Origin: Nemertoderma westbladi
Taxonomy: Eukaryota > Animalia > Xenacoelomorpha
Assembly (NCBI GenBank): GCA_032718475.1
Contig: JAUCBJ010000560.1
Coordinates: 1 to 37,899, forward strand
Length of the DNA: 37,899 nt
Direction: 5' to 3'
Shown piece by piece: positions 1,650 through 24,700 of the stretch (positions within the stretch are counted from its first letter, which is position 1; every line of letters starts with the position of its first letter). A program made the position numbers and the translations under genes. The notes beneath the pieces were generated by a model. It was not told the DNA's origin and ran no database searches. It saw nothing but the letters and a program-made list of their open reading frames with translations.

Positions 1650-1962
1650 ATCTGCCTTATATATCCGCCTACTTCCACGTCGCTGTAATTCAAAGGAAGG
1701 AAAGCGACATGTTTCCACAGTCCCAGTAAAACTGCTGCGTCCCGAGTCAAACCTTCGTAAACGAAATATCGACCGCCAGTTTGCTGCCTCCTTCGTACAA
1801 GATCTCCACGAGGTGTGTTGTTTATTTGGAGGTACAGCAGTGACATTCATGTCCATTGATGATAAGGCCCGAATTCCAATTGGTCTAACTGCAGCCAACT
1901 CTCAAGCTCCACTAGCAATGCATATGGAATATCGGGTGCGCCTTCCTGACCATGATTTTGTC
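1650..1962 (+). pseudogene. Zator transposase exon 2, truncated after the first catalytic Asp region
   Basis: SALYIRLLPRRCNSKEGKRHVSTVPVKL...SIDDKARIPIGLTAANSQAPLAMHMEYRVRLPDHDFV. The DDKA...HDF pattern is that of Zator/TP36 (ISAzo13-related) transposases. The remainder is absent from the window. Confidence 0.75.
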
Positions 1963-4900
1963 CGAATGCCGAATGGGGCGACGAGTTTTCCCAGGTGGTT
2001 CGAGTTCGACTACGACGTCGATTCTGCCGAATGGGGCGACGAGCCTACCGGGCGCCGGCGGTCCCACTATGACGTCGATTCTGCCGAATGGGGCGACGAG
2101 TTTACCCGGTGGTTCGACGTCGCGGTTACCTGGTGTTTCGACGACGTTTCAGCCAAATGGGGCGACGAGTTTACCCGGTGGGTCAACGACGAGTTTACGC
2201 GGTGGGTCAACGACGAGTTTACCCGGTGGTTCGACGACGAGTTTACCCGGCGTTTCGACGACGATTCCGCCAAATGGGGCGACGAGTTTACCCGGCGGTT
2301 CGATGACGAGTTTACCCGGTGGTTCGACGACGAGTTTACCCGGTGGTTCGACGACAAGTTTACCCGGCGGTTCGACGACAATTCTGCCGAATGGGGCGAC
2401 GAGTTTACCCGGCGGTTTGACGACAACTCTGCCAAATGGGGCGACGAGTTTACCCGGTGGTTCGACGACGAGTATTCCAGGTGGTTTGACAACGAGTTTA
2501 CACGACGGTTTGATGACAATACTGCCGAATGGGGCGATGAGTTTACCAGGTGGTTCGTCGACGAGTTCACCTGGCGTTTCGACGACGATTCCGCCGAATG
2601 GGGCGACGAGTCTACCTGGTGGGTCAACGACGAGTTTACCCGGTGGGTCAACGACGAGTTTACCCGTTGGTTCGACGACGAGTTTACCCGGCGTTTCGAC
2701 GACGATTCCGCCAAATGGGGCGACGAGTTTACCCGGTGGTTCGACGACGAGTTTACCCGGTGGTTCGACGACGAGTTTAACCGGTGGTTCGACGACAAGT
2801 TTACCCGGCGGTTCGACGACAATTCTGCCGAATGGGGCGACGAGTTTACCCGGCGGTTTGACGACAACTCTGCCAAATGGGGCGACGAGTTTACCCGGTG
2901 GTTCGACGACGAGTATTCCAGGTGGTTCGACAACGAGTTTACACGACGGTTTGACGACAATACTGCCGAACGGGGCGACGAGTTTACCAGGTGGTTCGTC
3001 GACGAGTTCACCTGACGTTTCGACGACGATTCCGCCGAATGGGGCGACGAGTCTACCTGGTGGTTCGACGACGAGTTTATCCGGTGGTTCGACGACGAGT
3101 TTACCCGGTGGTTCGATGACGAGTATTTCAGGTGGATCGACGACGAGTGTACCCGGTGGTTCGAAGACGAGTTTACCCAGTGGTTCGACGACGAGCTTAC
3201 CCGGTGGTTCGACGACGCGGTTACCCGGTGGTTCAACGACGATTCCACCAAATGGGACTACGAGTTTACCCGGCGGGTCGACGACGATTCCGTCAAATGG
3301 GGCTACGAGTTTACCCGGTGGTTCGACGACGATTCCGCCAAATGAGGTTATGAGTTTACCCGGCGGTTCGACGACGATTCCGCCGAATGGTGCGACGAGT
3401 TTACCCCGCGGTTCGACGACGATTCCGCCAAATGGGACTACGAGATCACCAAGCGGTTCGATAACGATTCCGCCGAATGGGGCGACGAGTTTACCCGGTG
3501 GCTCGACGACGATTCCGCCAAATGGGGTTATGAGTTTACCCGGCGGTTTGACGACGATTCCACCGAATGGTGCGACGAGTTTACCCCGCGGTTCGACGAC
3601 GATTCCGCCAAATGGGACTACGAGATTACCAAGCGGTTCGATAACGATTCCGCCGTATGGGGTTACGAGTTTACCCGGCGGTTCGATGACGATTCCGCCA
3701 AATGGGGTTACGAGTTCACCCGGCGGTTCGACGACGATTCCGCCGAATGGTGCGACGAGCTTACCTGGCGGTTCGACGACGAGTTTACCCGACGGGTCGA
3801 CGATGAGTTTACCCGGCAGTTCGACGACGACTCTGTCGCATGGGGCGACGAGTTTACCCTGTGGATCGACGACGAACTTACCTGGCAGTCTGACGACGAG
3901 TTTACCTGGCGGTTTGACGACATACACCCTCCTGGACCAGGTAGGCCCGGGAAACCAGACAGCCGATGACCTGGTCCAGAGGTGTCTTCCTGAAAACTGG
4001 AACGACAACTTTAATATGATAGTCTCAGGATCTGATCCATCTACGGGTAAGATGACGACTCCAATGTCCCCACCAATCTCGACCACCACAAACTCTGTGA
4101 ATAACGCTATTATGGTTGAGGACCCAGCAGATGGTGGTAGCTGGTGCAATAGGACGACTACTACACCTATCCATATGAAACCACCCCATTCTGGCGGCGT
4201 TTACAATACTGCACACCCAAGCTGGTTAGGCCCGGGTAACCATACAGCCAATGACCCGGCTCGGGTGCGTCAGGAAAGCACAAACAATGGCTCCAAGTTT
4301 GGCGCTGGTACTAGCCCTATCCCAGTTACAAATACAAACTTTTTGGTGCGTATACCTAATAATATTTCTATATTTACTAGTTATAGTAACTGTGTTACCA
4401 CTACTATATCAGCAGCCAAACAACCACTGGTAAGTACAGCTGTTCGCCGAGCTAAGAGGGGTCCTGGTTACTGGCAGCAGCTTGGGAAGAAATGCCAGGC
4501 AACCAGACCGCATACCAGGAGCCAAGGTGCCCTTCCTAAGACAATACCCTACAATCCCAGACAGGTTAATGACTCACCAGACGCAATAGAACCTAATAGA
4601 GCAATAGAGCCGATTGCAGATCAAAATGATGTGAATGCAGATCAAGGTGCAGCCGCAACCAGCGACCCACCTTCTCCAGTGTCTATAACAGTGAGTGATG
4701 GTTTCTCTTTGACGCAGCCTGGTCAGCTGATCCCAGATTGCCCACCATTCATGGATATATCAGAGAGTGGATTAGAGCGACTTAGCGGACAAGGTAAGGT
4801 TGACATACTAAAGGAAGCATTCATCTCTGAGGTGGTCGACAATGATGTTTATCTGGGAGGAAATGAACCTGATGCTGCCTCCTGCAACTGCGTTTCTCAG

Positions 4901-7834
4901 GGGGATGCTAATACATGCTCAGAGGTGGCAAATTTGCAGGGACCAGAGGAGAACTATGGGGACCACATGTGTTCCAATTCTATTCAAGGTGCAGTAACTG
5001 GGCAGGAGACACTGATACACAGAGTGGATGACCTCCAGGATGACCTCACCTGGAAGCCCAGATATATCACCATAAATGCATACCCACGCCCAAAAGAAAA
5101 TGAGACAATGTCCAAGATCACCGACTTCTATCATCCAACAACCAAGGATGTTACATTTATACTCGATCCAGAAGTGGAAGAATTCCAACCTGCCGCACTG
5201 GTGACAAACACATATCCACAGGATGTATCAGAGCTCCCTCTGTCTCAGCAAGAGGAGCTAATGAGTCTGTTTCCTGATAGTGATGATAAGTCCTGTCCCT
5301 TGGCTATCATAAAGGCTATAACGAAACCACGGCGCCCAGGACACAGGATATACATCCCTCCATCTTGGAAGGATCTTCAATCACTTAAAGGGGACAGTTA
5401 TTTGAGCGATACTATTGTGGATGCATTTTTCACATTGTTGGAAAGGCAGATTCATGGTGTAGTAACTATTCCCATAGAATTTGCAAGGAAACTACACCAG
5501 CAAAGCTATGATCTAGCTGCAGCAGTTAGATATGTCACCAGCAATTCAAGTATTCATGAAAATAACATGCTGTTGATACCAGACATTCACAAAAAACACT
5601 TCACACTGCACATTGCTGACCCAAGTAAAAGGGAAGTTTTCACACTAGATTCATTAAATGAGACATCAACAGTACCAGCTACAATAGCAGGTAGCATTGC
5701 AAAAATTTTGAACTTGATAAGTTCTGCCTCGGAGAATGACACCTCAAAGAGATGGGTGCCAACTAATATAAAGCGACCTTTCCCAGGGCAATCCAATCAT
5801 CATGATTGTGGGGTCTATGTCTGCATGTATGGCTTGTCTTTATCAATGAACTGGAACTCTTTATGCCCTTTTCACAAGGACAGCAGTAAAGTACGGAAAT
5901 GGCTAGGAAAGTGTTTAGAGGATGCTTGCATCCATGATTACCAGGGGTCTAGAATATTAGTCCCCATTCCTGCTGAATTAAATTCTCCTTCTGATAAGGA
6001 TAGTCTAAATAAAACACAGTGTGCCCTTGCTCAGCCATACCAATCAGTGAAGATGGCTCTTACATCTAATAGGAGAGAGATCAAGCACCCTTGTAAGCCA
6101 ATTAATAGCCATACAGTGAAACCTGCAGATGCAAATCCATGGATTGAATTTGACAAAATTACCACATCAGATGAATTCCTAGAGGTTGTACGTAAGCTAA
6201 AACTTATCCAAAATCCAAAAGAAGTATTTGCAAAGTCATTGACCTCTCTTGGTCTAGAGGCACTAACAAAATTTCAAAAGCTTCTCTTCAAAGACATAGC
6301 ACATAAAATTTTAGGTGAATCAAGTGGTTTGAACTTTCAGCTGATCAACAGAAGATCGATAGATGAAGCAGCGCTAGATGTTGCGGAATTTGCTATATGT
6401 TATGAAGAAAGGGCCCTATCAAACAGCTTCAAGAAACGAGTAAATGTGTCCAATGTGGACTCTCTTGGCTTTCTTCAACTTCTTGAACTGACAACAAATC
6501 TTCAGATCGAGGTTAAAACCCTCAAAGCAGAGAATAGCAATGCTATTGCTAGGATTGAGTCTCTAGAAGCTGCATTAACTCTAATACTCTCAGACAGTTC
6601 GCGGACAACTATCAAGAATGCATGTACACCCTTACAACTAGCAAAAGATGCCAATATTAAAACACACCCTAAAAAGAAGAAAATATCTCATAAACATGAT
6701 AAACATGCTGGAAGCGGTAGTGGCAATAAAGGGGAAAATAATAAACAAGCAAATAAGGTAGAGCTAAATACAAACAATAAAAATGCCAAAGAACCTTCAC
6801 TGATTTGCAGTAATGCTAGGCAATATAAGAATATTGTAACGGGAAAAGAGGCAAATGAAAAGGAGTATGTATATCCATCTATTGACAACCCTAAATCCAT
6901 AGATCAAGTCTTGACAAGTGATCGGACTTGGAGAACCCCAATAAACCCGAGTCATCCAACAAATGATATAAATACAAAACATGATTACATAAAGACTAGC
7001 AATTTGTATGAGGATCTGGATACCGATGAAAAGCTTGCATTCCTGCTTGAAAATCAAACAAACTTTTTGGAGAAGCTAGATTCTAGTGACTGGTATCAGA
7101 ATCCTGCGAACAGGCATAATACCGACAGAATGTTAGGTAATAATATAAAGGCCGTGTCTCCAAGTGATACATGCAAGGTTAGGGTATATGGGTTGCCAAA
7201 AAACACCTCTCTGGAATCACTTTCATGTTTTTGCTACTCACAAATTGGGTGTACTCCCATAAGTGTCCAAATGGAAGACACAATGCCTGGAGAGAAGTTG
7301 GCTATTCTCACAATTGAACGTAGTACTCTGGAGAACTTTCTGCAACCATCACTTTGGCCTGGAGATAACATTTTTGTTGAACAGGTGGTGGGTACCTCAA
7401 TTAGTAAGGATAGATCTCTAACAAACCTAGCTGCTACTCCATCCCAAATTCATCATCACAGGAGAAAAACCCTCCTTCCTACACAAAAATTATTAGAAGC
7501 TCAAGTCCATGGGAATGCACACAGGCCTAGCTTCATGGATGAAAACGCATTCAAACCATTGAACAGGCCTAGGTTCATGGATGAAACCACATTCAAACCA
7601 TTTCATCCTATAAGGGAGCACGGAAAGTATAAAACTACAACTGCAATGCACTATACCCAATGTGTCCCAAAACAGGAGATTCAATTAGTCGGATATAGAT
7701 CTTCCAAACTTCGAAGTAGGGAGATTGGAAGATTCAATGACTGCTATGCTCTGGCTCAGAAATTTTATGATTCAAATAAATTTAACAAAACACAGACATA
7801 CCAAGGCAATCACCTGCAACATTGTCATTTTTAA
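1952..7834 (+). CDS. LINE ORF1: Ser/Thr/Pro/Gly repeat + Ulp1/SENP (C48) peptidase + coiled coil + RRM
   Basis: 1960-codon open frame. Protease motifs at ~5350-5930; heptads LTTNLQIEVKTLKAENSNAIARIESLEAAL (~6480-6580); RRM-like KVRVYGLP...FLQPSLWPGDNIFV (~7170-7385). The ATG at 1952 lies in Zator sequence, so the true start is uncertain. Confidence 0.85.
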   Translation: MILSECRMGRRVFPGGSSSTTTSILPNGATSLPGAGGPTMTSILPNGATSLPGGSTSRLPGVSTTFQPNGATSLPGGSTTSLRGGSTTSLPGGSTTSLPGVSTTIPPNGATSLPGGSMTSLPGGSTTSLPGGSTTSLPGGSTTILPNGATSLPGGLTTTLPNGATSLPGGSTTSIPGGLTTSLHDGLMTILPNGAMSLPGGSSTSSPGVSTTIPPNGATSLPGGSTTSLPGGSTTSLPVGSTTSLPGVSTTIPPNGATSLPGGSTTSLPGGSTTSLTGGSTTSLPGGSTTILPNGATSLPGGLTTTLPNGATSLPGGSTTSIPGGSTTSLHDGLTTILPNGATSLPGGSSTSSPDVSTTIPPNGATSLPGGSTTSLSGGSTTSLPGGSMTSISGGSTTSVPGGSKTSLPSGSTTSLPGGSTTRLPGGSTTIPPNGTTSLPGGSTTIPSNGATSLPGGSTTIPPNEVMSLPGGSTTIPPNGATSLPRGSTTIPPNGTTRSPSGSITIPPNGATSLPGGSTTIPPNGVMSLPGGLTTIPPNGATSLPRGSTTIPPNGTTRLPSGSITIPPYGVTSLPGGSMTIPPNGVTSSPGGSTTIPPNGATSLPGGSTTSLPDGSTMSLPGSSTTTLSHGATSLPCGSTTNLPGSLTTSLPGGLTTYTLLDQVGPGNQTADDLVQRCLPENWNDNFNMIVSGSDPSTGKMTTPMSPPISTTTNSVNNAIMVEDPADGGSWCNRTTTTPIHMKPPHSGGVYNTAHPSWLGPGNHTANDPARVRQESTNNGSKFGAGTSPIPVTNTNFLVRIPNNISIFTSYSNCVTTTISAAKQPLVSTAVRRAKRGPGYWQQLGKKCQATRPHTRSQGALPKTIPYNPRQVNDSPDAIEPNRAIEPIADQNDVNADQGAAATSDPPSPVSITVSDGFSLTQPGQLIPDCPPFMDISESGLERLSGQGKVDILKEAFISEVVDNDVYLGGNEPDAASCNCVSQGDANTCSEVANLQGPEENYGDHMCSNSIQGAVTGQETLIHRVDDLQDDLTWKPRYITINAYPRPKENETMSKITDFYHPTTKDVTFILDPEVEEFQPAALVTNTYPQDVSELPLSQQEELMSLFPDSDDKSCPLAIIKAITKPRRPGHRIYIPPSWKDLQSLKGDSYLSDTIVDAFFTLLERQIHGVVTIPIEFARKLHQQSYDLAAAVRYVTSNSSIHENNMLLIPDIHKKHFTLHIADPSKREVFTLDSLNETSTVPATIAGSIAKILNLISSASENDTSKRWVPTNIKRPFPGQSNHHDCGVYVCMYGLSLSMNWNSLCPFHKDSSKVRKWLGKCLEDACIHDYQGSRILVPIPAELNSPSDKDSLNKTQCALAQPYQSVKMALTSNRREIKHPCKPINSHTVKPADANPWIEFDKITTSDEFLEVVRKLKLIQNPKEVFAKSLTSLGLEALTKFQKLLFKDIAHKILGESSGLNFQLINRRSIDEAALDVAEFAICYEERALSNSFKKRVNVSNVDSLGFLQLLELTTNLQIEVKTLKAENSNAIARIESLEAALTLILSDSSRTTIKNACTPLQLAKDANIKTHPKKKKISHKHDKHAGSGSGNKGENNKQANKVELNTNNKNAKEPSLICSNARQYKNIVTGKEANEKEYVYPSIDNPKSIDQVLTSDRTWRTPINPSHPTNDINTKHDYIKTSNLYEDLDTDEKLAFLLENQTNFLEKLDSSDWYQNPANRHNTDRMLGNNIKAVSPSDTCKVRVYGLPKNTSLESLSCFCYSQIGCTPISVQMEDTMPGEKLAILTIERSTLENFLQPSLWPGDNIFVEQVVGTSISKDRSLTNLAATPSQIHHHRRKTLLPTQKLLEAQVHGNAHRPSFMDENAFKPLNRPRFMDETTFKPFHPIREHGKYKTTTAMHYTQCVPKQEIQLVGYRSSKLRSREIGRFNDCYALAQKFYDSNKFNKTQTYQGNHLQHCHF
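1967..3922 (+). repeat. CpG-rich coding minisatellite, 24-bp and 45-bp units with higher-order duplications
   Basis: Units ACGACGAGTTTACCCGGTGGTTCG (TTSLPGGS) and TTIPPNGATSLPGGS. A 441-bp block repeat (marker GAGTATTCCAGG at 2470 and 2911) and a 180-bp block repeat (~3434 and ~3614). Confidence 0.95.
5350..5930 (+). other. Ulp1/SENP-type cysteine protease domain within ORF1
   Basis: DLQSLKGDSYLSDTIVDAFF; LLIP...HFTL (His 5597); TLDSL (Asp 5648); QSNHHDCGVYVC (oxyanion Gln, Cys 5807). Confidence 0.85.
7521..7602 (+). repeat. 42-bp tandem duplication in the ORF1 C-terminus
   Basis: HRPSFMDENAFKPL / NRPRFMDETTFKPF. Confidence 0.85.
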
Positions 7835-10800
7835 ATCTCACAATGCAACAAAAGACATATTCACAGTCATGACCTTTAATAGCAATGGATATGTGAGATC
7901 ACAGGAATATATACGGAAACTATTAGCAAATGAGAAACCTGACATACTGGTAATTCAAGAACATTGGCTTTCTGCTAGGGAGGCTATTCACTTCCTAAAG
8001 CAGAAAGATCAGGTGCCAAAGGGGTACAAAGTGTATTACACCATAGCTGACGCCATGATGAGTCCTAAAGCAAGAGTTAGGGGAGAGGGGGGTGTAGCCG
8101 TGATGATAAGGGAGGACATAATGCCTCACACTTCAATGTTGAAATCAGGATCAGACAGAATGGTCGCCATAACTGTTAAAGGTTTATTGGATAAAGACCT
8201 TCTAATTATAGGTGCATATATGCCCTGTAATGGTGGGACAGGGGAGGACAGAGACAACTATATAAAGGTTGCAGCAATGTTGTCCACCATTATAGAAGAT
8301 GCAATTGAGAGTCGCATGGAAGTAATGATCATGGGAGATCTCAATGGTAATGTCATTAAATCAGATAATCCAAGAGAACAGACAAGCTATTCTGATTTTG
8401 GCACTCTATTCAATGAGAACATCACTGACACTTTTGATCTAAACCCAACCACAGTTGAATCACATGCACTGGGGCCACGTGCTACTTATAGATTTAGAAA
8501 TAAACTGGGCAAGGTAATCAGGCAATCTTTTATAGATCATATTGTAGTATCCAAAGACATGTTTGACAGCCTTTTGTTCACCAAAGTCTTCAATACTGAT
8601 GTTGATAATGTATCTGACCATGTCCCAGTATATTCAACCTTCTACACAAACCTTGCCCAAACCGCAGGGAACTTTAGAGGGACCGAGAGTAAATGGGCAA
8701 GACATAAGAGACCTGTATTTTTGTTTGGGAGAGCAACTCAGAGTGATATGGAAAATTATCAAGAGGAGGTATGTCGCTACTTGAAAATATTCTCCGATAG
8801 GACATCTGATGCAACACAGATCTTGAGGGAAGACTTAGAGCTCCGTGCCAAGGGATTGATCAATACTTTGTATGAAGCAGCTAGAAAGAACATCCCTCAT
8901 GTATTTCCAAGACACCATAAGGGACTTAGGAACCGGCAAAATATAAGACCACTGGATCACTATTGGCACTCAATGAAAGGGAAGATAACAATGGTTGATA
9001 GGGATGATGGGAATCCTTATATATCACTGCTAGAAAACAAAAGAATGAGGCACCGAGCAGAGAATCATACATACTGGCAACATATAAGGAATTTGGCCAA
9101 TGACTGTCGTTCGAATCGCAACAGATTTTGGTATAAATTGAAGTCAGAAAACAGGGTTGCTAAGACTGATGTCCATAGGGACCAACTTTACTCGGACTAT
9201 ATGGAAAGATTCAGCATAAAGAGTATTCATAATCAAGATCATCATGACAATTTGCTTATATTGGGAACTGAACATGAACCTTCTGGAAATTTAGTAAATG
9301 CAGCTGATGTGGATACTGCCATAAAATCACTCAATAAAGGCAAAGCGTCAGATAGCAATTCTCTTAAGGCCGAACATCTCCTTTACAGTCGGTCAAATGA
9401 GCTCCATGGGTTCCTAGCAGATTTATATAATGATATAATGGCCACTGGCTACTTTCCCAAATGTTTATGTACAAGCATTCTGATGCCGCTTCTCAAAAGT
9501 GAGGATCGAGACAAGCATCAGACAGGGAGTTATAGAGGTGTCTCGATTATTTCAATCTTGGCTAAAGTGTGGGAGATTCTGGTCTCAGAAAAGGTCCGTA
9601 ACATAAAAACGAGTAACCTACAAATGGGATACAAATCAAAACTAAGTACAGAGATATCATATGCAGTAGCAACAAATCTGATCCGGTACTTCAATGAAGG
9701 GGGTTCAAATGTCTACATGGTTTCACTTGATTTGACAAGCGCATTTGATTCTGTCTCATACGAGAAACTAATGACAAAATTAGCAGAAACTACTCTTGAT
9801 GTAAGAATCATTCGAACACTATGCTCCTACTATAGCCAATCTGTAGCATTGATGAGGATAGGTAACAGTATCTCAAGGAAACCAATACCACTACGACGTG
9901 GAGTAAGACAAGGTGGTGTCTTATCATCAATCCTCTTTAACATATATCTTGATGACTTGTTCAACCTTATTGAATCAGCAGGTTTTGGGCTGCATATAAA
10001 TAGGGAAGCATACTCAATCTTAGGCTATGCCGATGATGTCCTACTCCTAGCTAACATGGGAACTGATATTCAGAAGATGCTATACTTATGTGAACAATAC
10101 TTTAAAGAGCATGACCTGGTCATCAATTTTAAGAAGACACATTATGTAATATGCCCATTCTCAGCACGAGCAGATATGGGCAAATCAGAAAGCATACACA
10201 CTGGGAGTGGTGCAAAGTTACAGGCAGTTTCAAAATGTATATACTTAGGGCTGCCTTTGCCACCATCAAGACAGAACATAAGTGACTACTTTACAAGGAA
10301 GATATGGATGAATACATCCAGGATTAATATACGTGGCTTGGCTAGTGATGATGTGCCGCTGGATATTACTGCTTTGGTGTGGGGTGCCATATCCGCTCCA
10401 TCAATATTATATGGGTCACATATTATTGAGGGGGCACTAGGAGAATGTATTGGTCGGACCTGGCGTAAAGCGCAACGTTCTTTGTTACGCATGGGGAATT
10501 ACATATCAAATGATATCCTGCAGGCGCTCTTTAATGATCGAACATTTTCAACTATGGTAACACTTTCAAAGGCGAGGGTAATTTACTCCTGCATGAACTC
10601 TGGTAATGAGAAGGTTTATGGGTTGTTTAGCCACATTCTAACTCAACATCTTGCAGGTCAAATGTCTGTGCCGCTGTTTTCGGACTATTCCATAGGAGGT
10701 TGGAAGCTTGGTTTGCCACGACTGCAAGCTCTAGTAACCGGACGATACTGCCTTAAGTCAATCATTAAACGGATTGGAGGGACGGAGCTATGCTTTATGG

Positions 10801-10904
10801 ATCAGATGCGCGTCCTATATATCACTAACATGCTCTATAAAACTGGTACGCAATTGTCGGTCAGGAGGGAGTGTATTCAAGAGCTTTATCGACTTCAGGT
10901 GTGA
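7737..10904 (+). CDS. LINE ORF2: apurinic-like endonuclease + reverse transcriptase
   Basis: APE motifs TFNSNG, IQEHW, GGVA, GAYMP, GDLN, IDHI, SDH. RT motifs YRGVS, QMGY, LDLTSAFD, GVRQGGVLS, YADD, YLG. First ATG at 7737; the frame is open from 7725. Confidence 0.95.
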   Translation: MTAMLWLRNFMIQINLTKHRHTKAITCNIVIFKSHNATKDIFTVMTFNSNGYVRSQEYIRKLLANEKPDILVIQEHWLSAREAIHFLKQKDQVPKGYKVYYTIADAMMSPKARVRGEGGVAVMIREDIMPHTSMLKSGSDRMVAITVKGLLDKDLLIIGAYMPCNGGTGEDRDNYIKVAAMLSTIIEDAIESRMEVMIMGDLNGNVIKSDNPREQTSYSDFGTLFNENITDTFDLNPTTVESHALGPRATYRFRNKLGKVIRQSFIDHIVVSKDMFDSLLFTKVFNTDVDNVSDHVPVYSTFYTNLAQTAGNFRGTESKWARHKRPVFLFGRATQSDMENYQEEVCRYLKIFSDRTSDATQILREDLELRAKGLINTLYEAARKNIPHVFPRHHKGLRNRQNIRPLDHYWHSMKGKITMVDRDDGNPYISLLENKRMRHRAENHTYWQHIRNLANDCRSNRNRFWYKLKSENRVAKTDVHRDQLYSDYMERFSIKSIHNQDHHDNLLILGTEHEPSGNLVNAADVDTAIKSLNKGKASDSNSLKAEHLLYSRSNELHGFLADLYNDIMATGYFPKCLCTSILMPLLKSEDRDKHQTGSYRGVSIISILAKVWEILVSEKVRNIKTSNLQMGYKSKLSTEISYAVATNLIRYFNEGGSNVYMVSLDLTSAFDSVSYEKLMTKLAETTLDVRIIRTLCSYYSQSVALMRIGNSISRKPIPLRRGVRQGGVLSSILFNIYLDDLFNLIESAGFGLHINREAYSILGYADDVLLLANMGTDIQKMLYLCEQYFKEHDLVINFKKTHYVICPFSARADMGKSESIHTGSGAKLQAVSKCIYLGLPLPPSRQNISDYFTRKIWMNTSRINIRGLASDDVPLDITALVWGAISAPSILYGSHIIEGALGECIGRTWRKAQRSLLRMGNYISNDILQALFNDRTFSTMVTLSKARVIYSCMNSGNEKVYGLFSHILTQHLAGQMSVPLFSDYSIGGWKLGLPRLQALVTGRYCLKSIIKRIGGTELCFMDQMRVLYITNMLYKTGTQLSVRRECIQELYRLQV

Positions 10905-11181
10905 TAGATCAACCACTTAGCCTTTAGACTGGGGGCTTTCGATGGGGGCTTGTATTTCAGGATGGATGCAAATGGTACTCAAGTGCTTTTTATTATAAGG
11001 GCTTGTAGATTAACTAGATCTTGAAGTAGACTTGATCAGCGTTTTCATTTTACCCAGTGCTGTGTTTAAGTGTTTTGAATTTTTGGGTTTTCAGCGTTTC
11101 CATTTTACTCAGTGCTGTGTTGTTTTGAAATTTAGGTGCATCTAAGATTACCTAATTTTATTGTATATTTTATTTAATTAT

Positions 11182-11226
11182 AATAAAGGGGCCGAGCCCT
11201 ATCTCGGATGATGAAATGAAATGAAT
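11182..11226 (+). other. LINE 3' terminus: AATAAA, hairpin and simple-repeat tail
   Basis: AATAAA 11182-11187; CCGAG-CCCTAT-CTCGG 11192-11207; ATGATGAAATGAAATGAAT 11208-11226. Confidence 0.75.
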
Positions 11227-12220
11227 GCTGGATACTCTTGAAAACAGTGTCGCTACCATGACGACGGCTAACAGCTGATATTGCCACGTCGACGTTTCTT
11301 TGTTTCTTTGTTCTCTCGTTGTTCAGGTTGACCAATCAGAGCGTTTTTTGTCTCTGTGTTGGAGGTGTATACAGAACTCAGTAGTTCAGTGTTATGTTTT
11401 TTGCCTAGAGCCTAAGAACATCGGCCTTTGGCACCTCCGTATATCAGCGTTCTTTAGCTTTACATTAGTAGGCTTAATTATAGAACGTATATCTGTTATC
11501 AACCTATCTACTCCATACAATCTAACCAAACTAATTATATGCAATTCATATCTTACATTACTGCTTTTGCTGTTGGTTATTCGTTATATTTGTTGATGAA
11601 TTATTATATCGGAATACTGATCAATAGTCAGACACCCCACCTTCTTGATATACTAAAGGTTAGAGAGACCGGTTACAGATAAACGATTGCGACCTATGTT
11701 GAGTGGTTTGAAGTGAATCTAATGCTATTTCATATGCCCAACATAAATTGTCTGTTGCTCTCTTTATACGTGACTAAATTTAGTGAAGGTTGGCAGATTA
11801 GTGTGCAGTATTGTGCAGCATTGTGTATGATTGTAACTGATAACAAAGCATCTCCTAAAGAATGCGCCATATACGTTAATCTATAGCCTTTTCGTTGTGA
11901 CTAGTTTAAGTCATAACTCTGTTTACATATTTAGAGCGCCACGTCCTAAAGGAACTGTTAATATTTCCCGAAAGTGAATAATATTTGTCAGAGATTATAT
12001 ATTACGATCAGTCGAATAATACAGTAGGCTTACACCATCAATCATTAAGCTCCGAACTCAGTCTCCCGGGTATATCCAACGGGTGAATGATTGCGCATAG
12101 ACTGGCTTCGGCTAATGTAGTGTGTCAAATACTCGTCATAAAGCTAAAGAATATATATCATCTAAAAGACATTCTAATTTTGGCAGGTTAAACTGTCAAA
12201 GGTCTTCAAAAGCGCAAACA
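11227..12220 (+). repeat. 5' LTR, missing its first 185 bp
   Basis: Matches 30601-31592 with about 4 substitutions and 2 single-base indels seen by eye. Ends AAACA; CCAAT box near 11332. Confidence 0.95.
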
Positions 12221-13075: not shown

Positions 13076-14398
13076 TTCAGAGTTTATGCGATTATTCGCA
13101 ACATTCATTCCCCAAGTTTGTTCCTACAGTAATTGTGTTTGTTATACATACCGTTATAGTTAAACTAACCCCGGTACTATACGGGCTGCTTGGCGTAGGT
13201 AAAGACTGGTGATTTTGTGCACCGGTCACTCCAGCAGATGCCGTGGTTCTTTTAGCTGTTCAAGTATTTTTAACTACTAATTATTTGTTATACAAGTACT
13301 TGTACCTAATTTAGGGTTTAGTGTACAGTGCTTTCCGAAAGCAATTAGTGTGTAGGCAGTGTATTTGTGTTGTAAAGTGGTTGATAGGCACGTACGTTAG
13401 CTCTATTAACTTCTAGGTAGGGACACTCCGTGATACATAACGTAGTACCTATAGCGATACGGTTATAGGTCGTCAGGCGGTGGTATTTTCCTATCTGGAC
13501 AGCGCAGTATATTTACTACTACTTATTATTTTCAAATACCGTAGTAACCTGTCCGTTGTAATAACCAGATATTCTAACCCTTTGTTAGGCTGGTTAGTAG
13601 ACTTCTTGTAAAATTACCCTAAAAATTTGTATTTGTGTATTTGTAATTAAATTTTTGTGTTTACTTAGAGATTGTAATCTCAACCCGAATTGTACGTAAT
13701 TTGTAGTATTAAGTAACTTAGGTAAATTAGAATTATTTGTTTTAGTGTCCAACAAGTAGTACTCCACTGAGAGCGCACAGCTTCTGTGTAGTGACTCCCC
13801 CAGAAATAATAACATTTATTTCAAACATTGACAAAACCCATTTCAACGGGTATATATATATTATAAATCAACTCAAACGATTTATAAATAGTAGGCCTGC
13901 CATACAACAATTAGGTCTCAATATCAGTTGGACTGCTGCTTAAATAACGGTAATAAAGTAAGTTAAAGTAACCAAGTAACCCTTAAATTTCAGAAATTCA
14001 ATTATTTAAAATAATTGATATACCGGTATTTACAATAGGCTTATTATCTTTATTTTCATAAACTTAAGCTGAAATCATACCGGTATTCTGTAATTAATTT
14101 TAGTTAATAATTATACTTATATATACTATAAGTGTAAACTGCATACCGGTATCCACGATAGGCCTATTATATATTTATATATATTTGTGCTAAAATTATA
14201 TATACCGGTTCTGTGAAAAACCTAGTCTGTAATAATACTTATATATACCATAAGCATACCGGTATTCTAATATTATATATATCACGCTACACTGAGTAGC
14301 AGTATCGGTAATTAATTACTAGGCTAGCAGTTAATACTGAATTACTAGACTTACTTAAACTGTAATATAGCAGTAGGCATTCAACTGCGTAAACAAAC

Positions 14399-16031
14399 AT
14401 GTCTGATACTAAGCAGAACCTGTCAGACAGTTTATTAGATGTAACTATCTGCGACTCAGATAGAGGTGTAGAACCGTCTATTCCTAAGTTCAGTTCACCT
14501 CCCACTGTGAGGAAAGTCATCCCTCCAGTAGTAATAACAGAACCTAGGCTGGTCCAGCACCGTAGGTCTATCATAGGCACTCGAGCCCGGGTCAAGCGGG
14601 ACCAAGAAGCAGCGGAACAGCAACAACCCGTGAGCCAAGAACTTATTTCTCAGCGGCCCGACAGCTCCAGTAGTGAAGATACTGTAGAACTGACACCCGA
14701 GCGCGGAGCAAGGATGACGGATGCAGTTTATTCGGATCCCCTTCTCATCCTTCCTGCAGCCGTACTCACTAGGTTATTGATCGCGGTGGAAGAACACCAG
14801 ATCGATTGGGCGAGAAGTAAGCGCTCAACTAAAGATATTTATGCGGGATACACAAAGGAAGAACTGAAATCTATGGTCGAGTCGCAATGGAACTTCCCCG
14901 GACCCGGACTCCCGTTTGATTTATCAGAAGCTGCCTGGGAAGACATACACCGAATGGGAGTAGCCAAGGAAACCATCGATCCAGCTGTGTGGAAGAGGTC
15001 CGCAGCCGGATACGCACAGGGATTCTTCAGCTCTATGGAGCGAGTAGAAAAACAACTGTTACAACAACCTCAAGGACCTCAAGAGCAGGGACAACTGCTT
15101 TATCAAGTTAGAGAAAGAATTCTGCGAATCAGGCTAATATTATCAGCCTTTGAAGAGGCTTCTAAAAGAAGACAAGACACGTCGTTGCAAGTTGCCGTAA
15201 AGACTTGGTTTCAACGGGTGAGTCGCCAGGTTCAAGGAACAGCTCAGTGGAAAGCTCAGCTGGAGGAGCGCTCAACCCATGGAGAATCAACAGACGCTAC
15301 TTTTTCCCAAGTGGAAGGTGAAGCGACGGCAGAAAAACCGCAAAAGAGGGATGCCATTGACATCTATCTGTCAGACTATCAGCGTTTCGTAGGTGATGAA
15401 GAGTTGCGGAGAAGACTAGAGGGGCTTAGCCCTAATAGTGAAGGAGCCCAGCGTGTGTTGGACGCAATCGATGTGGATAGGTTAGCTGCGAACCAAGCTA
15501 AATTCAATGAAAGCATCCGCATCGCTAAGGTTCAAGAAGAACAAGTAAGGAAAAAACGTATAGAAGATAGAAAGAAAGCGGCAGAGGCAAAAGCGGCAGC
15601 TGCAGCAGTAGAAGCCGAAAGAAAGGCGGTAGAAGCCGAAAGAAAGGCGGCCGAAGCGGAAAGAAAGGTGGCAGCTGCAGCAGTAGAAGCCGAAAGAAAG
15701 GCGGCCGAAGCGGAAAGAAAAATAGCAGTGGCAGAAGCAGAACGAAAGGCATCTGAAGAGATAACCCAACTAGAGTTGGAAAATCTTCAAGAGAAACAAG
15801 ACAACTTTAATAAACAGTTAACAGCTAGTAATATGCAGATGATGAATCGATCTACTCCCAAAAGACAGGGTTATACATCATCTGAGGAAGGCGATACCAC
15901 CGACACTGAAGGCGGAGGAAATCGATCTCGCCTAAGCAGACGTAAAAGAACATCCCACCGTCAGAAATTGCCTGATTTGCCTCCAGCTGTTAGAAGGCAA
16001 CTAAATAACACCAACTTAGGTAGTACAGAAC
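14399..16031 (+). CDS. BEL gag, N-terminal part (interrupted by the P element)
   Basis: ORF from ATG 14399 with a charged helical AEAERKA repeat. Removing the P element and one TSD joins it in frame (GSTE-PTDQIITIERL) to 20700 onward. Confidence 0.85.
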
Positions 16032-16377
16032 CATGGCCTACTTTATAAGAGGCCATGACAACGCACGGGCAAATAGCTGACTTGGAGGCCACTTTGTTTA
16101 TGGGTGTAAGTCGGAATATATGGTAGATACAAACTTCTAACCTTTACCTACCCCCACTAAGTCGATGCTGAGGATCTCAAATATCATATTTAAAATTGTT
16201 TATCTCGAGACCCTGTTGCTATGGCAACATCTAACTTCTAAACGGCTGCAGATACAAACTTCTAACCTTTACCTACCCCCACTAAGTCGATGCTGAGGAT
16301 CTCAAATATCATATTTAAAATTGTTTATCTCGAGGCCCTGTTGCTATGGCAACATCTAATCAGTGGATACCGGTTGA
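16032..16377. repeat. Left TIR of the P element with an internal ~110-bp direct duplication
   Basis: Reverse complement of 20465-20691; block 16125-16234 is repeated at 16250-16359. Confidence 0.9.
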
Positions 16378-16473: not shown

Positions 16474-19033
16474 CTATAGTGACAACTTTAGTTTCTTAGT
16501 AGAAGATTCCTTCGAAGACAATGGTGTAAGGAGTTTCGTTTGATTGTTTAAAAAAATATTAGTTAGCTTCATTAGACACACTTGTGGAATCTCACCATCA
16601 AAATATTGACTTGACACAAAGCTAAAGTAGCTGCAAAGACTTCTCCGGCAAACTGAAAGCACACTGATGTTAAGAAAAAAAATAAAACAAAAAAAGGTAA
16701 ACTGCACTAGTATATCTGATGGTGTAGTAAGGCGACCTCGGTCTAGCTCTTTCAAATAGGTGCTGTACTCTGTATAGACAACTGTAGAAGGGTCTATGTT
16801 AGTATTCTCCGGTAAAGATCGCTGAAGATAACCGGCAATAAAGTACAACGCTTGTTTAGTGTCAACATTTATCTCATCTTCACACATAGGTAGTGTCTCG
16901 ACGAGATCTACAATAAATTCAGTCAATGTGACATTACATTTAGAGCATTTATGTGAGTCGTAATCGCTCTGCGTTGTTGACTGCTCATGTCGGAGAAACT
17001 CGAAATTAATTGAGGCTAACAGTTTTGTTTTTTGTATTTGGTAATACTGAAGGGCTTGCACTGCTGCAATGAAGTATGTTCCTCCCGCTGACTGGCGAAT
17101 CCGACCGAAAGCTTTTTCCAGTGGATCAGTGGTAAAATTACCACACAAAACATAATCGAAATTGCGTTGAAGTAACGATTTCACCAAATCTACAAAACCA
17201 CGAAACGTATGAACAATGGCGCTAGCTGTATCTGTTGTAAATGTCTGATAGCGAGTTTTACCATTTACACACCTCATTTTCTCAACATTAGAAGCTATAT
17301 CGAGCAGTATATCCAACCGTTTATCACCAGGATCTGATATGGGACTCCGCCATTCATCATTTAAATGTATAGCCTCGTTCTTGGACTTCACATTTAATAT
17401 CTTGAATGCCTTCACAAAAACTTCTATGAAATCTGCCGTGTCTTTGTCAGTTTTGTTTGATTTCGTATGAGTACGTAAAGCTGTTACAGTTTCGTCACAA
17501 AATACTCGAAGCATTAAACAAACGTCTTGTCTCTCAATAGGTTTCGGGTATACAGCTTTGTGAATAAGTCGATGACCAATTTTAACAACATTGGACTTCT
17601 CAGACTCGTATAAACTTCTAATACTCGACCAATTGGCTATCTTGCCATCAAGGTTTATTGCCTGGTTCTTTTCAGTGATCCAATTATTGCGAATTGATTT
17701 CATCAAGTGAACAAAATCAAACAAAAGAAATGTTCCCTGAGTGGTTAACCAAGGCTTTCCTACCTCAGTTTCAAATAAAGCAAAAAAGCTTCGATTGACA
17801 GACAGATTGTCACCAAGAATTGCAATAACATTACCATTAGCTGATTGAATGTTTAGATAAACATCTGTTATAACATCATATAGAAAACTTGAATCTAAAT
17901 TTAACACTGGCATCATGTTGTTCAGAAATGTTGGACCACCATGAAGGCATTTTAACATAACACCCAAAATAGTTTTGGCCAAATAGTTGGGATTGTTTTC
18001 AGCTATTCCAAATATGTGACCACCTTGGTAGGCCAATGCCGCCTTTACGTAAATTTCATCAACCAAGAGCACACAGTTCCGTTGCATCACTGATAGGTTT
18101 TTAAAAACTGCGTGTAAAAAGTTATGATCATCTAATTTATTTGCAGTCGAAGTTAGTCGTTGCAATGTACGGATTGATGGAAGAGGATACTCATTTAAAA
18201 TCTTTAAATACAGTTGCATACAGTCGACTAGTTGCATAATATTCAAAAGCACGAACCAAAACATCGGCAGTCCATTTCTGACAACCAACACGAACAGGTT
18301 GAAGTGACTTAATATCCTGAAGTAAAATATCGAGTTTGGAAGGGGTTTCCGCATTTGAAAGAAAATTAACCACATTATCTAATATTGACCAGCGATCAAT
18401 CACTTTTATACGCATGGAGTTTATAACGCAAAAGGGAACCGATATTTTAGCACCATATCTGTAAGACTCAAAAGTTAGATTCTTAAAGATCTTAAGAACA
18501 AACTTCGGAATTCCTGAACCAAACACAAATTCAGCACTTTGAATTATCGTCACCGGAACAGAAGAACCTGAAGATACTATTGCAGTAGCGGTGTAAACAA
18601 TAACATTATCCTTGATAATTTTTTTATCTCTTATCGCACCAACAACGTCTTTGTATTCGAACAAATCTTGTGCATTAAACTCGCCGAGCTGATCAGGTTG
18701 TATTTGGCGTGTACCAAAAGAAATTTTAGATACATCGCGCAGTTTTGGCTGAGATATGGGACAGCAACTTGGAGAAATCTGAGGCCATATCGAGGGGGGT
18801 TCGACAGGAATTAATTTCTGTGAGCGAAAAGCCCTACGTTGGGAAAACCCCTCCGGCCAATGCAGTTCACACACAACTGTGTGCTTGGAGACAATTAAAT
18901 TTTGGCGAACTTTCAATAGAACGCTCATCCATTGAGAATGGTACGGCTCGTCACTAGGAACTCGATAAACGGTTACCGGTGATTCATTTGCATAGTTGGA
19001 GCGACAAAGTGGAACGCAGCACTTTCTAGGCAT
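16474..19033 (-). pseudogene. THAP-domain P-element (THAP9-like) transposase, one frameshift near 18200-18225
   Basis: THAP MPRKCCVPLC..VP..W..VVCELHW..P; LPSIRTLQR; catalytic LVDEIYVK, LGDNLSVN, FDFVHLMKSIRNN, TDPLEKAFGRIRQ. Split over ORFs 19042-18191 and 18375-16474. Confidence 0.92.
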
Positions 19034-19275
19034 CGCATGCAATGCAACTAGAAAACCGCATGTAAATACTGAATGCAGGTAAGTAAGGACTCCGAGGCGA
19101 TGATTACTGCTTCAACTGTTCAATCTGTCGGTCACGGTCAGATCTCAGACGGTAATTACCGAATTAATAGACCACATCAACTGTCAAACATAATAAAACG
19201 AGGTACCGGTATCACAAACAACAATAGGCCCTATGTATTAAGCAAGGAGTATTAAGCCATAAGTGGTCACGGACA

Positions 19276-20464: not shown

Positions 20465-20691
20465 TCAACCGGTATCCACTGATTAGGCCTAGATGTTGCC
20501 ATAGCAACAGGGTCTCGAGATAAACAATTTTAAATATGATATTTGAGATCCTCAGCATCGACTTAGTGGGGGTAGGTAAAGGTTAGAAGTTTGTATCTAC
20601 CATATATTCCGACTTACACCCATAAACAAAGTGGCCTCCAAGTCAGCTATTTGCCCGTGCGTTGTCATGGCCTCTTATAAAGTAGGCCATG
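20465..20691. repeat. Right TIR of the P element (~227 bp)
   Basis: Essentially perfect inverted copy of the left end. Confidence 0.9.
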
Positions 20692-20699
20692 TACAGAAC

Positions 20700-21772
20700 C
20701 CACAGACCAAATAATTACAATAGAGAGACTCCCTACTATAGTAGATGAGCCTGAAATAATTAGGCCTGTTCCCGAAGCCACCCTTTCGGTCGTAGAGACA
20801 CCTGTACTCCCTGAACCTACTTCTCAATTCCCTTTGCACAGCACTAAGCTACCTGTGCCCAGCAGAACAGTCCGTGAGACAGTTCATACCCTGGACTCCG
20901 AGCGAAATATTCATGATTTGTCGCCCGTTGTCCCTCGTCCGCCCGCTACAACGTTGGCGAATCCCGCTTCGGCGGTCGAATGGGTGGATGAGAGACGACG
21001 GGGGATGGATCTCCTGCTCGGACAGATGCAGGAGACTGTTCAACAATTCAAAGGCACAGTAAGGGAAAGTAGGCTAGAGTTGCAAGAAGTGCAGCAAAGT
21101 ATCGCGCTAGAACGCGATAAATTAGTAAATACACAAAGGGGTATACCACCACCCCCTGTAACCATGTGTCAACCTGTTAGGTCTGAAGTATCTCATGCGC
21201 AAGGTGTGGAGCCTACACGCATCTATACTGCTAGCGAAGTAGAAACTCCTATAGTGAACCCTATTAAGGGTAATTATAGACCTGTTGATAATGATATTCC
21301 CTATAGACCGGATCATAATCCGAGAAATTTATATACCGATAACTCGATATTAAATAACACGATGGCCCAAGAAAGTTTTACGCGTCAAATGGCTAGAACC
21401 GAAGCCCTGCAAGCAGTAAAGGTGGGAGAGATCGTCAAGTTCAATGGAGATGAGATGAAATGGTTACCTTTTAATGAATATTACAAAGATAACATACAGA
21501 ACTCTGTGCTATCTAATGGAGAGAAACTTAGATTCCTCATCGAGTGCTTGGAAGGATCTCCCAAGTTAATGGTGTTAAAGTTTATTGGACATCCAGACGG
21601 ATTAAGACAAGTTTGGGATACACTAAACATCAGGTATGGTAATAGGAATAACATAGCTGGGTATTTGTATGCAAAGTTGGTAGCGCCCCGAAAGTTTATT
21701 AGTAGCGGAATTATAGAGTTTTCCGATGAGATTCAGGAGATCTGTAGACAATTAGATTGGCTAGTCTCATGA
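20700..21772 (+). CDS. BEL gag, continuation (DUF1759-like capsid region)
   Basis: KFNGDEMKWLPF...LSNGEKLRFLIECLEG...WDTLNIRYG. Stops at TGA 21770, where the frame shifts +1. Confidence 0.85.
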
Positions 21773-21785
21773 GTATCAGAATGCT

Positions 21786-24700
21786 ATGGTTATTAGAGCA
21801 GTGGCTTCTACTTTACCGAAGGGTGGAGTAGGTACACGCTGGGATAAGAAAGTGTTATATATGATGGAACAACAACGACGAGACCCTACCATGGCTGATC
21901 TCATGTCATTCCTAGATGGAGAAGTGAAATTACAGCTCCTGAAACTGTCCAGAGAGAAGACACCGGAAAACAAGGTAAGTGAAAAACCCGTCTCTAGGAG
22001 AAAGGTAACACCAGTGTGTTATACAGATGATGGCGAAAGCCAGACTTCTCAAGGAGAAGATAGCGGGAAAGACACTGACCGCGCTTATTACGTAAATAAA
22101 ATGCCAAAAGATCAGGTAAGTAAATTCAAGTCTCGAACAAATGACAGGAGAGAACAGGTAAGAAAAACTCCTCCCACGTCTCCCAAGAGAATTCAGGTGA
22201 GAAAGCCAGAAGAAAAAGCAAGTGTACACAATGTGACTCAGAGTAAGGTGAGTAACATCAAACCGAAATGTGCGCTATGTGACGGGACCCATCGCTTAAA
22301 TATGTGTGATGAATTTCTAAAGAAATCATTAACTGAGAGACGTGAAGTCATGTGGGACAAGCGGTTGTGCTATAATTGCCTCAGACAAGGACACCAACGG
22401 CGAACCTGTTACTCTGACACAAGATGTGCCAAGTGCGGTGCGAAACATCATATCTTGTTGCACACTGAATTCGAGCGAAATAGTCCGAGTCAGGTAAGTG
22501 ATTCCGAATTACATGTCCAATTCAGTGATGTGAACGACACTGATCAATCTGAGATGGAAGGATTCTATACGGACGAGTTCTCCGACGAAAACGAATCCTG
22601 TTACATGATAAATACCACAGTGTATCGAGCACTCATTTATGAAAAGGATACATCAGACATTGACCTTGCTTTAACTACTTCTGATCGACAACCATCTTGG
22701 AAAGCGCCAACTTCCAATGTAGGGATTAGAGAATTTCCTGTGGTACAGGTAAGGGTCCACGGACCAAACAGGAGTTATGTAGTGAACGCCCTCCTTGACT
22801 CCGGTAGTACAGGAACATTCATCGACAAAGAGCTAGCCGAAGACATATTCGCTGGACAACCCAAGTTCCGAACTAAGCTAAACATGTCAGGAATTATGCA
22901 AGTTTGGAAATCCACAGTAACCGCGGATTATTATGTAGGTGCGTTGTCCACCCCCCAGGACGAACTAGGAGAACATAGCATAAGGTCAGTGAAAATGGTG
23001 GCTATAAAGAACTTCGCTACTACTCAAGCAGACCTTTATAATTGGGACGAGGATGAGAGCATCCAACATCTTAAGATACCTCGATTCCAGACAGATTATC
23101 CTGGAGTGCAAATACTCATCGGTCAAAATGCGCATGAAGCGCTCGAGACATTAGAGAAACGACCTGCTCAACCGCAACCTCTACAAGTTTATGCGGGAAG
23201 AACTAGAGTAGGTTGGTACTTTACTGGCCCTTCCCGTAGAACTCTAATGGAAAGATTACCGAAAGACCAAGTATATCAAGCACGAGAATGGGAAGTTGAG
23301 AACAGTGAGTTCGACGATCCAACTGAGGGAACTCCATACTCCTCAGACAACGACGATATACATCAACTTTTTGATGAGGAGAATGCCATCGATCTCCTTA
23401 AGGAAAGCGAGACTTGGCAAAATCAAGTGAACTTATGTCAACTCCTTCACCCATCTGAGCGAGACGACTATAACGACGAGCTTAATGACGTCATTGAACG
23501 TTATAATGCCAAGACTCGGGATGAACATGCCGTGAGATTCTTTACTCAAGAGGTCGTAGAGCCCAACTCCTACGATAAGGCCCTATCGGTGGAGGAAGAA
23601 AGAGCCAAGCAGATCCAAGCGACAACTACTCGTTTTCTTAAAGATCAAGGAAGGTATGAGATCGGACTTCCTTTCCGAAAGCGAGAACCAAAGTTTATTA
23701 ACAACAGACCTTTGGCGGAGAAAAGAATTGCTCAACTACATCGACGCCTTACGGCAAATTCTTCAGCTAAAGAAATGTATAAAACACAGTTGAAGAAGTT
23801 TATTAGCAAAGGATATGCGGAGCTAGTACCGGAAGAAACACCCATAACTGAGAGAACGTATTATTTAACTCACCATTACGTTCCCAAACCCGGTAAACCC
23901 CATGAAGTACGAGTGGTGTTTGATGGTTCCGCCCTTTATATGGGCCAATCTCTTAATTCTGAATTGTTACCCGGACCCAACTTACTCCAATCCTTGTTGG
24001 GAATACTACTGCGATTAAGACAATACTCCATTGCTTTCGCCTCAGATATAGAAGGCATGTTCTTACAAGTCAAAGCGCTGGATAGGGATCGAGATAGCCT
24101 ACGATTTTTGTGGTGGCCTGAAGGAGACCTCAACCAGAAACCGGTGGAATACTGGATGACCATCCAGGCTTTTGGGATAATCTCGAGCCCTTCAAACGCC
24201 TGTTCCGTGGTGCGCACTACTGCGGATGACAACCGAGACGCCTTCTCTAAAGAAGTGATCGACAATATCAAACGAGACATCTACATGGATGATAATCTGA
24301 AGTCCCTTCCATCAGTCGAAGAAGCCATTGATGTCGCTAAAGGAACGGTAGAGTGCTTAAGAAGAGGTGGATTTCGATTAACTAAATTCACCAGCAACTC
24401 CCGTGAGTTTCTGGAGTCGATCCCGGTAGAAGATCGAGGAACAAAAGACCTAGATCTTATAAAGGATGATCTCCCAGAAACTAAGACCCTTGGTTTGAAA
24501 TGGGACACAGAAAGAGATGTCCTGTTTTTCCAACTAAAACAGCGAGATAATCCAGTTCGGACTAAACGGATATGTTTAAGTATCCTGAGTACTTATTTCT
24601 ATCCATTGGGATTTATTAGCCCAGTTATATTGATTGCTCGGAGTTTAGTACAACAAATGTGGCTTGAAAACCACTCATGGGACGATCCACTTAAGGGAGA

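Follow-up and report, generated by a model that had tools for sequence, protein, structure and literature searches.

Why would a long interspersed nuclear element (LINE) carry, within the protein that coats its own RNA, a protease of the kind that removes SUMO from other proteins? The question is raised by a contig of Nemertoderma westbladi (assembly GCA_032718475.1, contig JAUCBJ010000560.1, positions 1 to 37,899 of the forward strand; the whole stretch of 37,899 nucleotides is hereafter the window). In this window, an element of ~9.3 kb located at 1962..11226 encodes an Ulp1/SENP-type C48 cysteine protease domain in the first of its two open reading frames (ORFs). The ORF1 proteins of LINEs are viewed as RNA chaperones or packaging proteins, and their known additional domains are esterases, PHD domains and zinc knuckles. 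A deconjugation enzyme fused to an RNA-binding module would let a LINE act directly on host protein modification, and the element bears on the role of the Ulp1-type domains found in many transposon groups. Its weight is limited to that of one copy in one genome, with no known relatives.

An intact C48 domain in the ORF1 of a LINE

The C48 domain spans 5333..5947, corresponding to ORF1 residues ~1140-1344 (all features of the element lie on the + strand), and is confirmed as an intact but very divergent Peptidase_C48. The Pfam profile Peptidase_C48 (PF02902) matches ORF1 residues 1188-1309 with an E-value of 7e-6; its 26.5 bits exceed the gathering score (20.7). A segment of 231 amino acids (ORF1 residues 1120-1350, nt 5273-5965) was compared by phmmer with the PDB sequences: yeast Ulp1 (1euv) is matched at 2.5e-8 over query residues 28-213 (nt 5354-5911), nearly the whole catalytic domain, and SENP1 and SENP2 are matched at ~1e-6. 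The base composition and CpG depletion of the domain match those of the rest of ORF1 and of the element.

The catalytic residues are all identified in an alignment of 42 rows, comprising the query and 41 of the 105 database matches described below, those of ~300 residues or shorter. The catalytic His1228 (5597..5599), the oxyanion-hole Gln1292 (5789..5791) and the catalytic Cys1298 (5807..5809) occupy the invariant columns H109, Q173 and C179 of the 231-residue segment. The catalytic Asp1245 (5648..5650) occupies column D126, conserved in at least 90% of the domains, and pairs with the Asp of the Ulp1 VDSL motif. A pairwise alignment with Ulp1 (1euv) likewise pairs its H, D, Q and C with H1228, D1245, Q1292 and C1298. 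The sequence-only reading of this DNA had placed an intact Ulp1/SENP-type protease at 5350-5930 in a LINE ORF1, with the full His-Asp-Gln-Cys set in frame. These coordinates fit the domain delimited here, and the profile search, the Ulp1 match and the conserved columns bear that identification out.

An AlphaFold2 (AF2) model of the segment, built with the 42-row alignment, has a mean predicted local distance difference test score (pLDDT) of 85.7 and a predicted template modelling score (pTM) of 0.85; being made from an alignment of C48 domains, it leans to that fold. Foldseek against the PDB returns SENP5 (9gnv_A) as best match (E 2e-10, template modelling (TM) score 0.83 on the target, root mean square deviation 2.5), followed by SENP2, SENP1 and Ulp1, with E-values from 2e-10 to 1e-9 for these SUMO-specific proteases. 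More distant matches are NEDP1 (2e-7), XopD (3e-6) and the poxvirus I7L processing protease (1e-4). The segment is 17-24% identical to SENP and Ulp1 proteins of known structure. The predicted fold is that of a papain-like protease of clan CE, and it is SENP-like; the structure prediction thus agrees with the protease identified from the letters.

By its coding content, the region 1962-11226 is an APE-type LINE, i.e., a retrotransposon lacking long terminal repeats (non-LTR), since its ORF2 frame carries an apurinic/apyrimidinic-type (APE) endonuclease and a reverse transcriptase (RT) and overlaps the frame harboring the C48 domain and an RNA recognition motif (RRM)-like fold. The ORF2 frame (7689..10904, first ATG at 7737) overlaps the end of ORF1 (stop at 7834) in another frame. 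Pfam locates the APE endonuclease at ORF2 residues 61-311 (7869-8621; Exo_endo_phos, 5.3e-12) and the RT at residues 609-855 (9513-10253; RVT_1, 2.4e-30), and finds no restriction-like endonuclease in ORF2. In a search of the PDB sequences, the best solved relatives are the R2 protein (9.4e-23) and human L1 ORF2p (2.6e-19). With only eight related proteins at E-values of 1e-10 or below, the best of them 24% identical, ORF2 cannot be given a clade name.

Organization of the ORF1 frame

The stop-free ORF1 frame covers 1916..7834 (1972 codons, stop at 7832-7834) and offers in-frame candidate starts at ATG 1973, 4016, 4052, 4064 and 5108. It is clearly coding from ~4000 on: between 4000 and 7600 it contains no stop, against 2-12 and 4-17 stops per 300 nt in the other two forward frames, and past the repeats (from 3930) no other frame stays open. 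ORF1 therefore comprises at least 1300 codons even without the repeats at its 5' end. The non-repeat N-terminal part, residues 672-1064, matches no Pfam family and has no homologue at an E-value of 0.001 or below among 3515 candidates of 216-688 amino acids.

The 5' end of the LINE is a GC- and CpG-rich tandem array (1962..3929; Tandem Repeats Finder rows 2070-3929) with units of 24, 45 and 441 nt, all periods being multiples of 3. Its translation in the ORF1 frame, in which the ATG at 1973 lies, yields TTSLPGGS-type repeats. The GC content of the array is 0.56-0.59 and its observed/expected CpG ratio 1.7-1.9, characteristic of a strong CpG island, as compared to 0-0.7 in the CpG-depleted ORF1 body. 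As the other frames and the minus strand are largely open across it too, the array may be either coding or a 5' untranslated region (UTR)/promoter.

The ORF1 frame contains 43 Gly-Gly dipeptides, all of them upstream of the protease. The repeat array accounts for 40 (36 as [LIVF]xGG, 26 as LPGGS), and the remaining three are found at residues 740, 760 and 981, the last one within VYLGG/NEP, ~155 amino acids before the C48 domain. Residues 982-1972 contain none. To note, the [LIVF]xGG motifs of the array resemble the C-terminal tails cut by ubiquitin-like proteases; this is possibly a coincidence, and a tandem repeat represents a single event.

Downstream of the protease, a single-sequence model of the C-terminal 573 residues of ORF1 is poor (mean pLDDT 40.8). 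Its sole confident stretch (residues 1749-1825, pLDDT 67-83) has the β-α-β-β-α-β order of an RRM-like, ferredoxin-like fold, delimited at 7160..7396 (residues 1749-1827). A comparison of this stretch with 48,161 PDB representatives by VIA-align gives a top Z-score of 9.5, to the TRMT2A RRM; most of the top rows are RRMs, along with a few ACT domains, which share the same general fold. Between protease and RRM-like fold, a helical, heptad-like stretch (6461..6595, residues ~1516-1560) is modeled as low-confidence helices by AF2. By a crude count, at least seven of eight a/d positions are hydrophobic, without Pro or Gly, in the 28-residue windows starting at residues 1527-1533, which is weak evidence for a possible coiled coil. 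The claim that the protease precedes a coiled coil and an RRM thus stands for the RRM-like fold, while its coiled coil amounts to predicted helices and a heptad count. No CCHC knuckle, C-terminal domain (CTD) of the L1 type or 2A (NPGP) site was found in ORF1. Pfam identifies no ORF1 family in it at E-values up to 0.1, no ubiquitin-like domain and no SENP N-terminal domain. A search of the ESM Atlas with residues 1400-1972 gives a best score of 0.81, within the chance range.

In the ORF1 tail, a 42-nt unit occurs twice at 7521-7602 (RPSFMDENAFKPLN / RPRFMDETTFKPF). Contigs of X2, one of the sequencing runs X1 to X4 whose contigs were compared with the window, break at 7545, in a stretch of four A (A4) inside this repeat. 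In X1, the contig over 5066-8650 has one 1-nt gap, so that copies or alleles may differ by a frameshift.

Contig joins and relatives

The connection of the C48 domain with the remainder of the LINE can be followed in two contigs. One X1 contig spans 5066-8650, with five other letters and the gap just mentioned, and carries the C48 domain, the RRM region and the beginning of the APE domain; one X2 contig spans 5072-7544 and joins the C48 domain to the RRM region. X1 or X2 may be the window's own source. No X3 or X4 contig covers 5141-7457. The copy is young, as judged from its two ORFs, intact over 9 kb, and blastn and tblastn find no further copy of ORF1 or ORF2 in the window.

Upstream of the domain, the X1 and X2 contigs break at 5066-5095 (residues 1051-1060), 220 nt before the domain, with Met1065 (nt 5108) located 13 nt downstream of the break. 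The summed contig depth over 3899-5095 is 65.6 in X1 and 64.5 in X2 versus 23.2 and 28 on the 3' side, a ratio of ~2.3-2.8 that is a weak measure, summed contig depths not being copy numbers. The 5' part could be a recruited module, shared with other repeats and joined at 5066-5095 to the LINE body; relative to this break, the C48 domain belongs with the LINE body. From 8450 toward the 3' end, the summed depth climbs from 23-28 to ~140-200, and diverged ORF2 pieces of ~85% likeness appear (55 differences over 10128-10507), as expected from 5'-truncated older copies.

An exhaustive phmmer search of 1.84 billion representative sequences with ORF1 residues 1100-1972 returned 105 matches, the best with an E-value of 9.6e-9 and 30% identity. 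Every match is confined to the C48 part (query residues 14-246), and no matched sequence exceeds 801 amino acids. Peptidase_C48 is present in 105 of 105, RVT_1 or Exo_endo_phos in none. Other domains among them are a hAT dimerisation domain in two (P0011 and P0059), a weak DDE_3 in one, a MADF in one and SENP3_5_N in five. A scan of metagenome contigs gave 51 pattern matches, none confirmed as an ORF1 relative. A tree of 103 C48 domains, from which three of 106 rows had been removed because they covered too little of the profile, places the query outside any supported clade, at the end of a long branch (1.19), so that the tree assigns no origin to the domain.

Proposed role of the protease and alternatives

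The reading we favor, with a probability of about 0.4, is that the protease rides with the ORF1 ribonucleoprotein particle (RNP) and acts on SUMO-like conjugates of host proteins. The C48 protease would be active, and its substrate would be SUMO rather than NEDD8 or ubiquitin. A SUMO-like substrate is favored because the SUMO-specific SENPs come closest to the predicted fold, ahead of the viral processing enzymes that belong to the same clan. The protease is predicted to remain attached to the RNA-binding part of the ORF1 protein, since no Gly-Gly in residues 982-1972 means no canonical C48 cut between the two. It would then act in trans on host factors near the RNP, such as the SUMO-dependent silencing or restriction machinery, and the resulting deSUMOylation would be to the benefit of the element. 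SUMO is required for silencing of the PIWI-interacting RNA (piRNA) and KAP1/SETDB1 types, which would make counter-silencing an attractive target of the protease. A long residence of the domain in the LINE is suggested by a complete catalytic tetrad at no more than 30% identity to any relative, by the lack of a recent donor copy among the X1 and X2 contigs at 80% likeness or more, and by a GC content and CpG depletion in line with the rest of the element.

Several observations weigh against this reading. The residue following the catalytic His is Phe1229, where at least 90% of the aligned domains have a Trp (column W110), and Tyr1162 takes the place of the Trp found in the WLND motif of Ulp1. 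In Ulp1, both Trp clamp the Gly-Gly tail of the substrate, and their replacement may therefore alter specificity or activity. The Pfam score of 26.5 bits is low as compared to the 41-159 bits of the 105 relatives. No relative ORF1 was found, as none of the 105 matches touches residues 1346-1972, and over 5141-7457 no other X1 or X2 contig reaches 80% likeness, be it a second copy or a donor. With one ORF1 copy and no relative ORF1, the domain may be common to the family or a one-off acquisition, and selection on it within a LINE lineage is conjectural. Ten differences are listed between the window and the X1 and X2 contigs, none in the C48 domain and nine in ORF1; eight of these nine change the residue, giving no sign of purifying selection in numbers that are tiny.

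A more ambitious form of the proposal, speculative and on balance doubtful, is that the LINE equips the protein coating its RNA with a functional deSUMOylase. Each ORF1 protein on the element RNA would bring along its tethered, SENP-like protease wherever the element is transcribed or integrates, and SUMO would there be stripped from the host's SUMO-dependent silencing or restriction machinery, as a counter-defence delivered in cis. If the array is translated, its ~36 [LIVF]xGG motifs could restrain the protease by acting as an internal substrate or as a decoy.

It is also conceivable, if unlikely, that the C48 segment is a passenger, derived from another mobile element or a gene and fused in frame into one LINE copy, where it would be intact only through youth and play no role in retrotransposition. 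The only full-length copy seen is the present one, the domain being bridged over 5141-7457 by a single contig in each of X1 and X2, and neither the 1.84 billion representatives nor the metagenome contigs hold an ORF1 relative. The break 220 nt upstream of the domain, together with the higher depth beyond it, could mark a recombination joint, and C48 genes borne by transposons exist among its kin (hAT, DDE_3 and MADF proteins). The break, however, leaves the C48 domain in the same contig as the RRM region and the APE endonuclease, and the uniform base composition sets nothing apart within ORF1. As the bridging contig is the only one at 80% identity or more, no recent donor copy is seen either, and conservation of H, D, Q and C at such a distance from anything known argues for long selection somewhere.

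Self-processing appears slightly less likely still. In this scheme, cleavage of the long ORF1 product at Gly-Gly sites by the C48 domain, in cis or in trans, would detach the N-terminal region from the C48-RRM part, in the manner of the clan CE proteases of large DNA viruses. The position of all 43 Gly-Gly upstream of the protease, the unusual length of the frame and the lack of a 2A-type skipping site that could serve instead are in line with this scheme. The same distribution implies that a C48-type cut could shorten the ORF1 protein on its N-terminal side and would leave the RNA-binding part joined to the protease, for want of a downstream site. Moreover, most of the sites lie in an array whose translation is uncertain and whose motifs count as one event, and the fold is nearer to the SENPs than to the viral enzymes. 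SENPs recognise the folded body of SUMO, and ORF1 has no ubiquitin-like domain. Least credible is a non-catalytic module, its fold kept for binding SUMO or another ubiquitin-like protein, that would hydrolyse little or nothing and would, for example, dock the RNP to SUMOylated chromatin or to nuclear bodies. The low profile score and the replaced Trp near the active site would suit such a module, but four catalytic residues in the right columns are unexpected in a pure binder.

Comparison with other mobile elements and with cellular proteases

C48 proteases are known in other groups of retrotransposons, and it is their position within an APE-LINE ORF1 that is unreported in the literature searched (open-access papers and bioRxiv, with Repbase and subscription journals outside the search). 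By titles and abstracts, a single paper on a non-LTR-borne Ulp1 domain was found there; papers that mention Ulp1 along with the ORF1 of a non-LTR retrotransposon use it as a reagent to remove tags. According to that single paper, Ulp1-like cysteine proteases occur at the N-terminus of nematode NeSL elements and of Utopia-1_TSP (Kojima and Jurka 2015, PMC4640811). The view taken from the sequence alone, that C48 domains belong to DNA transposons and not to LINEs, was therefore too strong. Like the present one, those elements are non-LTR retrotransposons that place an Ulp1-like C48 protease on the N-terminal side of the remaining functions. NeSL and Utopia, however, combine protease, RT and a C-terminal restriction-like endonuclease in a single ORF, whereas here a separate ORF1 with an RRM-like fold is followed by an ORF2 with an N-terminal APE. 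Hence the cited non-LTR precedents are single-ORF elements with a restriction-like endonuclease and the element described here is a two-ORF, APE-type LINE. Membership in NeSL/Utopia was rejected, because their defining single-ORF architecture bearing a restriction-like endonuclease is absent. Kinship with the NeSL protease is unsupported as well, since 0 of 105 domain relatives carry an RT.

Dualen elements offer another non-LTR example of a ubiquitin-like-deconjugating type of protease: they are said to have a Josephin-like cysteine protease, proposed to interfere with protein degradation (cited in PMC8557442). The family is Josephin and not C48, and the architecture of the element differs. 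Among DNA transposons, an Ulp1 C-terminal catalytic domain whose role is unknown is described for Mutator (hydra, lancelet and plants) and Ginger1 (Bao et al. 2010, PMC2836005). These too are mobile elements carrying an Ulp1 catalytic domain, and hAT-linked C48 proteins are among the best matches of the present one. They move by cut-and-paste, and their domain is joined to a transposase or lies beside it, as opposed to a LINE ORF1; the tree gives no supported grouping with the present domain.

The type II, or L1-type, ORF1 protein is composed of a coiled coil, an RRM and a CTD (classes of Khazina and Weichenrieder, as summarised in Metcalfe and Casane 2014, PMC4120745). The present element resembles this plan: its ORF1, overlapped at its end by an ORF2 with APE and RT, has a heptad-like helical stretch and then one RRM-like fold. 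L1-type proteins have a few hundred codons, whereas ORF1 here has at least 1300 and also carries a C48 protease and, N-terminally, a long part that is disordered; no CTD was identified. In the text of that survey, which deals with 448 ORF1s of the Jockey superfamily, the words protease and peptidase occur 0 times (PMC4120745). With the cellular SENP/Ulp1 proteases, the domain shares its fold, its H-D-Q-C set and its best structural matches; it differs by the Phe in place of Trp after the catalytic His and by being embedded in a retrotransposon protein.

Ends of the element and neighboring features

The insertion starts at 1962, as the X1 and X2 contigs over 1500-1961 continue beyond 1961 with 1362 and 999 letters, respectively, that do not resemble the window; the junction is bridged, by 31 letters, in an X4 contig. 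The interrupted sequence, 1618-1961, looks coding (…MSIDDKARIPIGLTAANSQAPLAMHMEYRVRLPDHDF…) and belongs to a multi-copy sequence; it is broken by the LINE at 1961 and has no Pfam match. At the other end, the 3' UTR (10905..11226) ends in GATGAAATGAAATGAA, and the element closes at 11226 with a short TGAAA-type repeat, presumably reminiscent of L2/CR1-type tails. A hairpin predicted at the 3' terminus does not outdo shuffled sequences (z -1.86), 10 of 200 of which fold equally well. No clear target-site duplication was seen flanking the element, whose 3' end abuts a different repeat at 11227. This very high-depth repeat begins exactly at the LINE 3' end (11227-11400), and loose ends at 11227 in all runs indicate a repeat boundary. 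It recurs at 30601-30773, with 99.4% identity over 174 nt, and has a summed contig depth of 2,100 to 196,000 across four runs.

The remainder of the window harbors further mobile elements and open frames. A 551-codon frame at 14393-16048 (+) encodes an AEAERKA-type Ala/Glu/Lys repeat and matches no Pfam family, and an open frame at 35677-36237 (+) has a FLYWCH zinc finger, barely above the cut-off (5.6e-5). A P-element/THAP9-like transposase is encoded in two adjoining frames at 16477-19111 (-), with a THAP domain (6.8e-7), a TNP-like RNase H N-terminal domain and a GTP-binding insertion domain. At 20681-27167 (+), a BEL/Pao-type LTR retrotransposon exhibits a gag-like ORF (DUF1759) and an open pol of 1800 codons containing Peptidase_A17 (6e-34), Integrase_H2C2 and DUF5641 domains.

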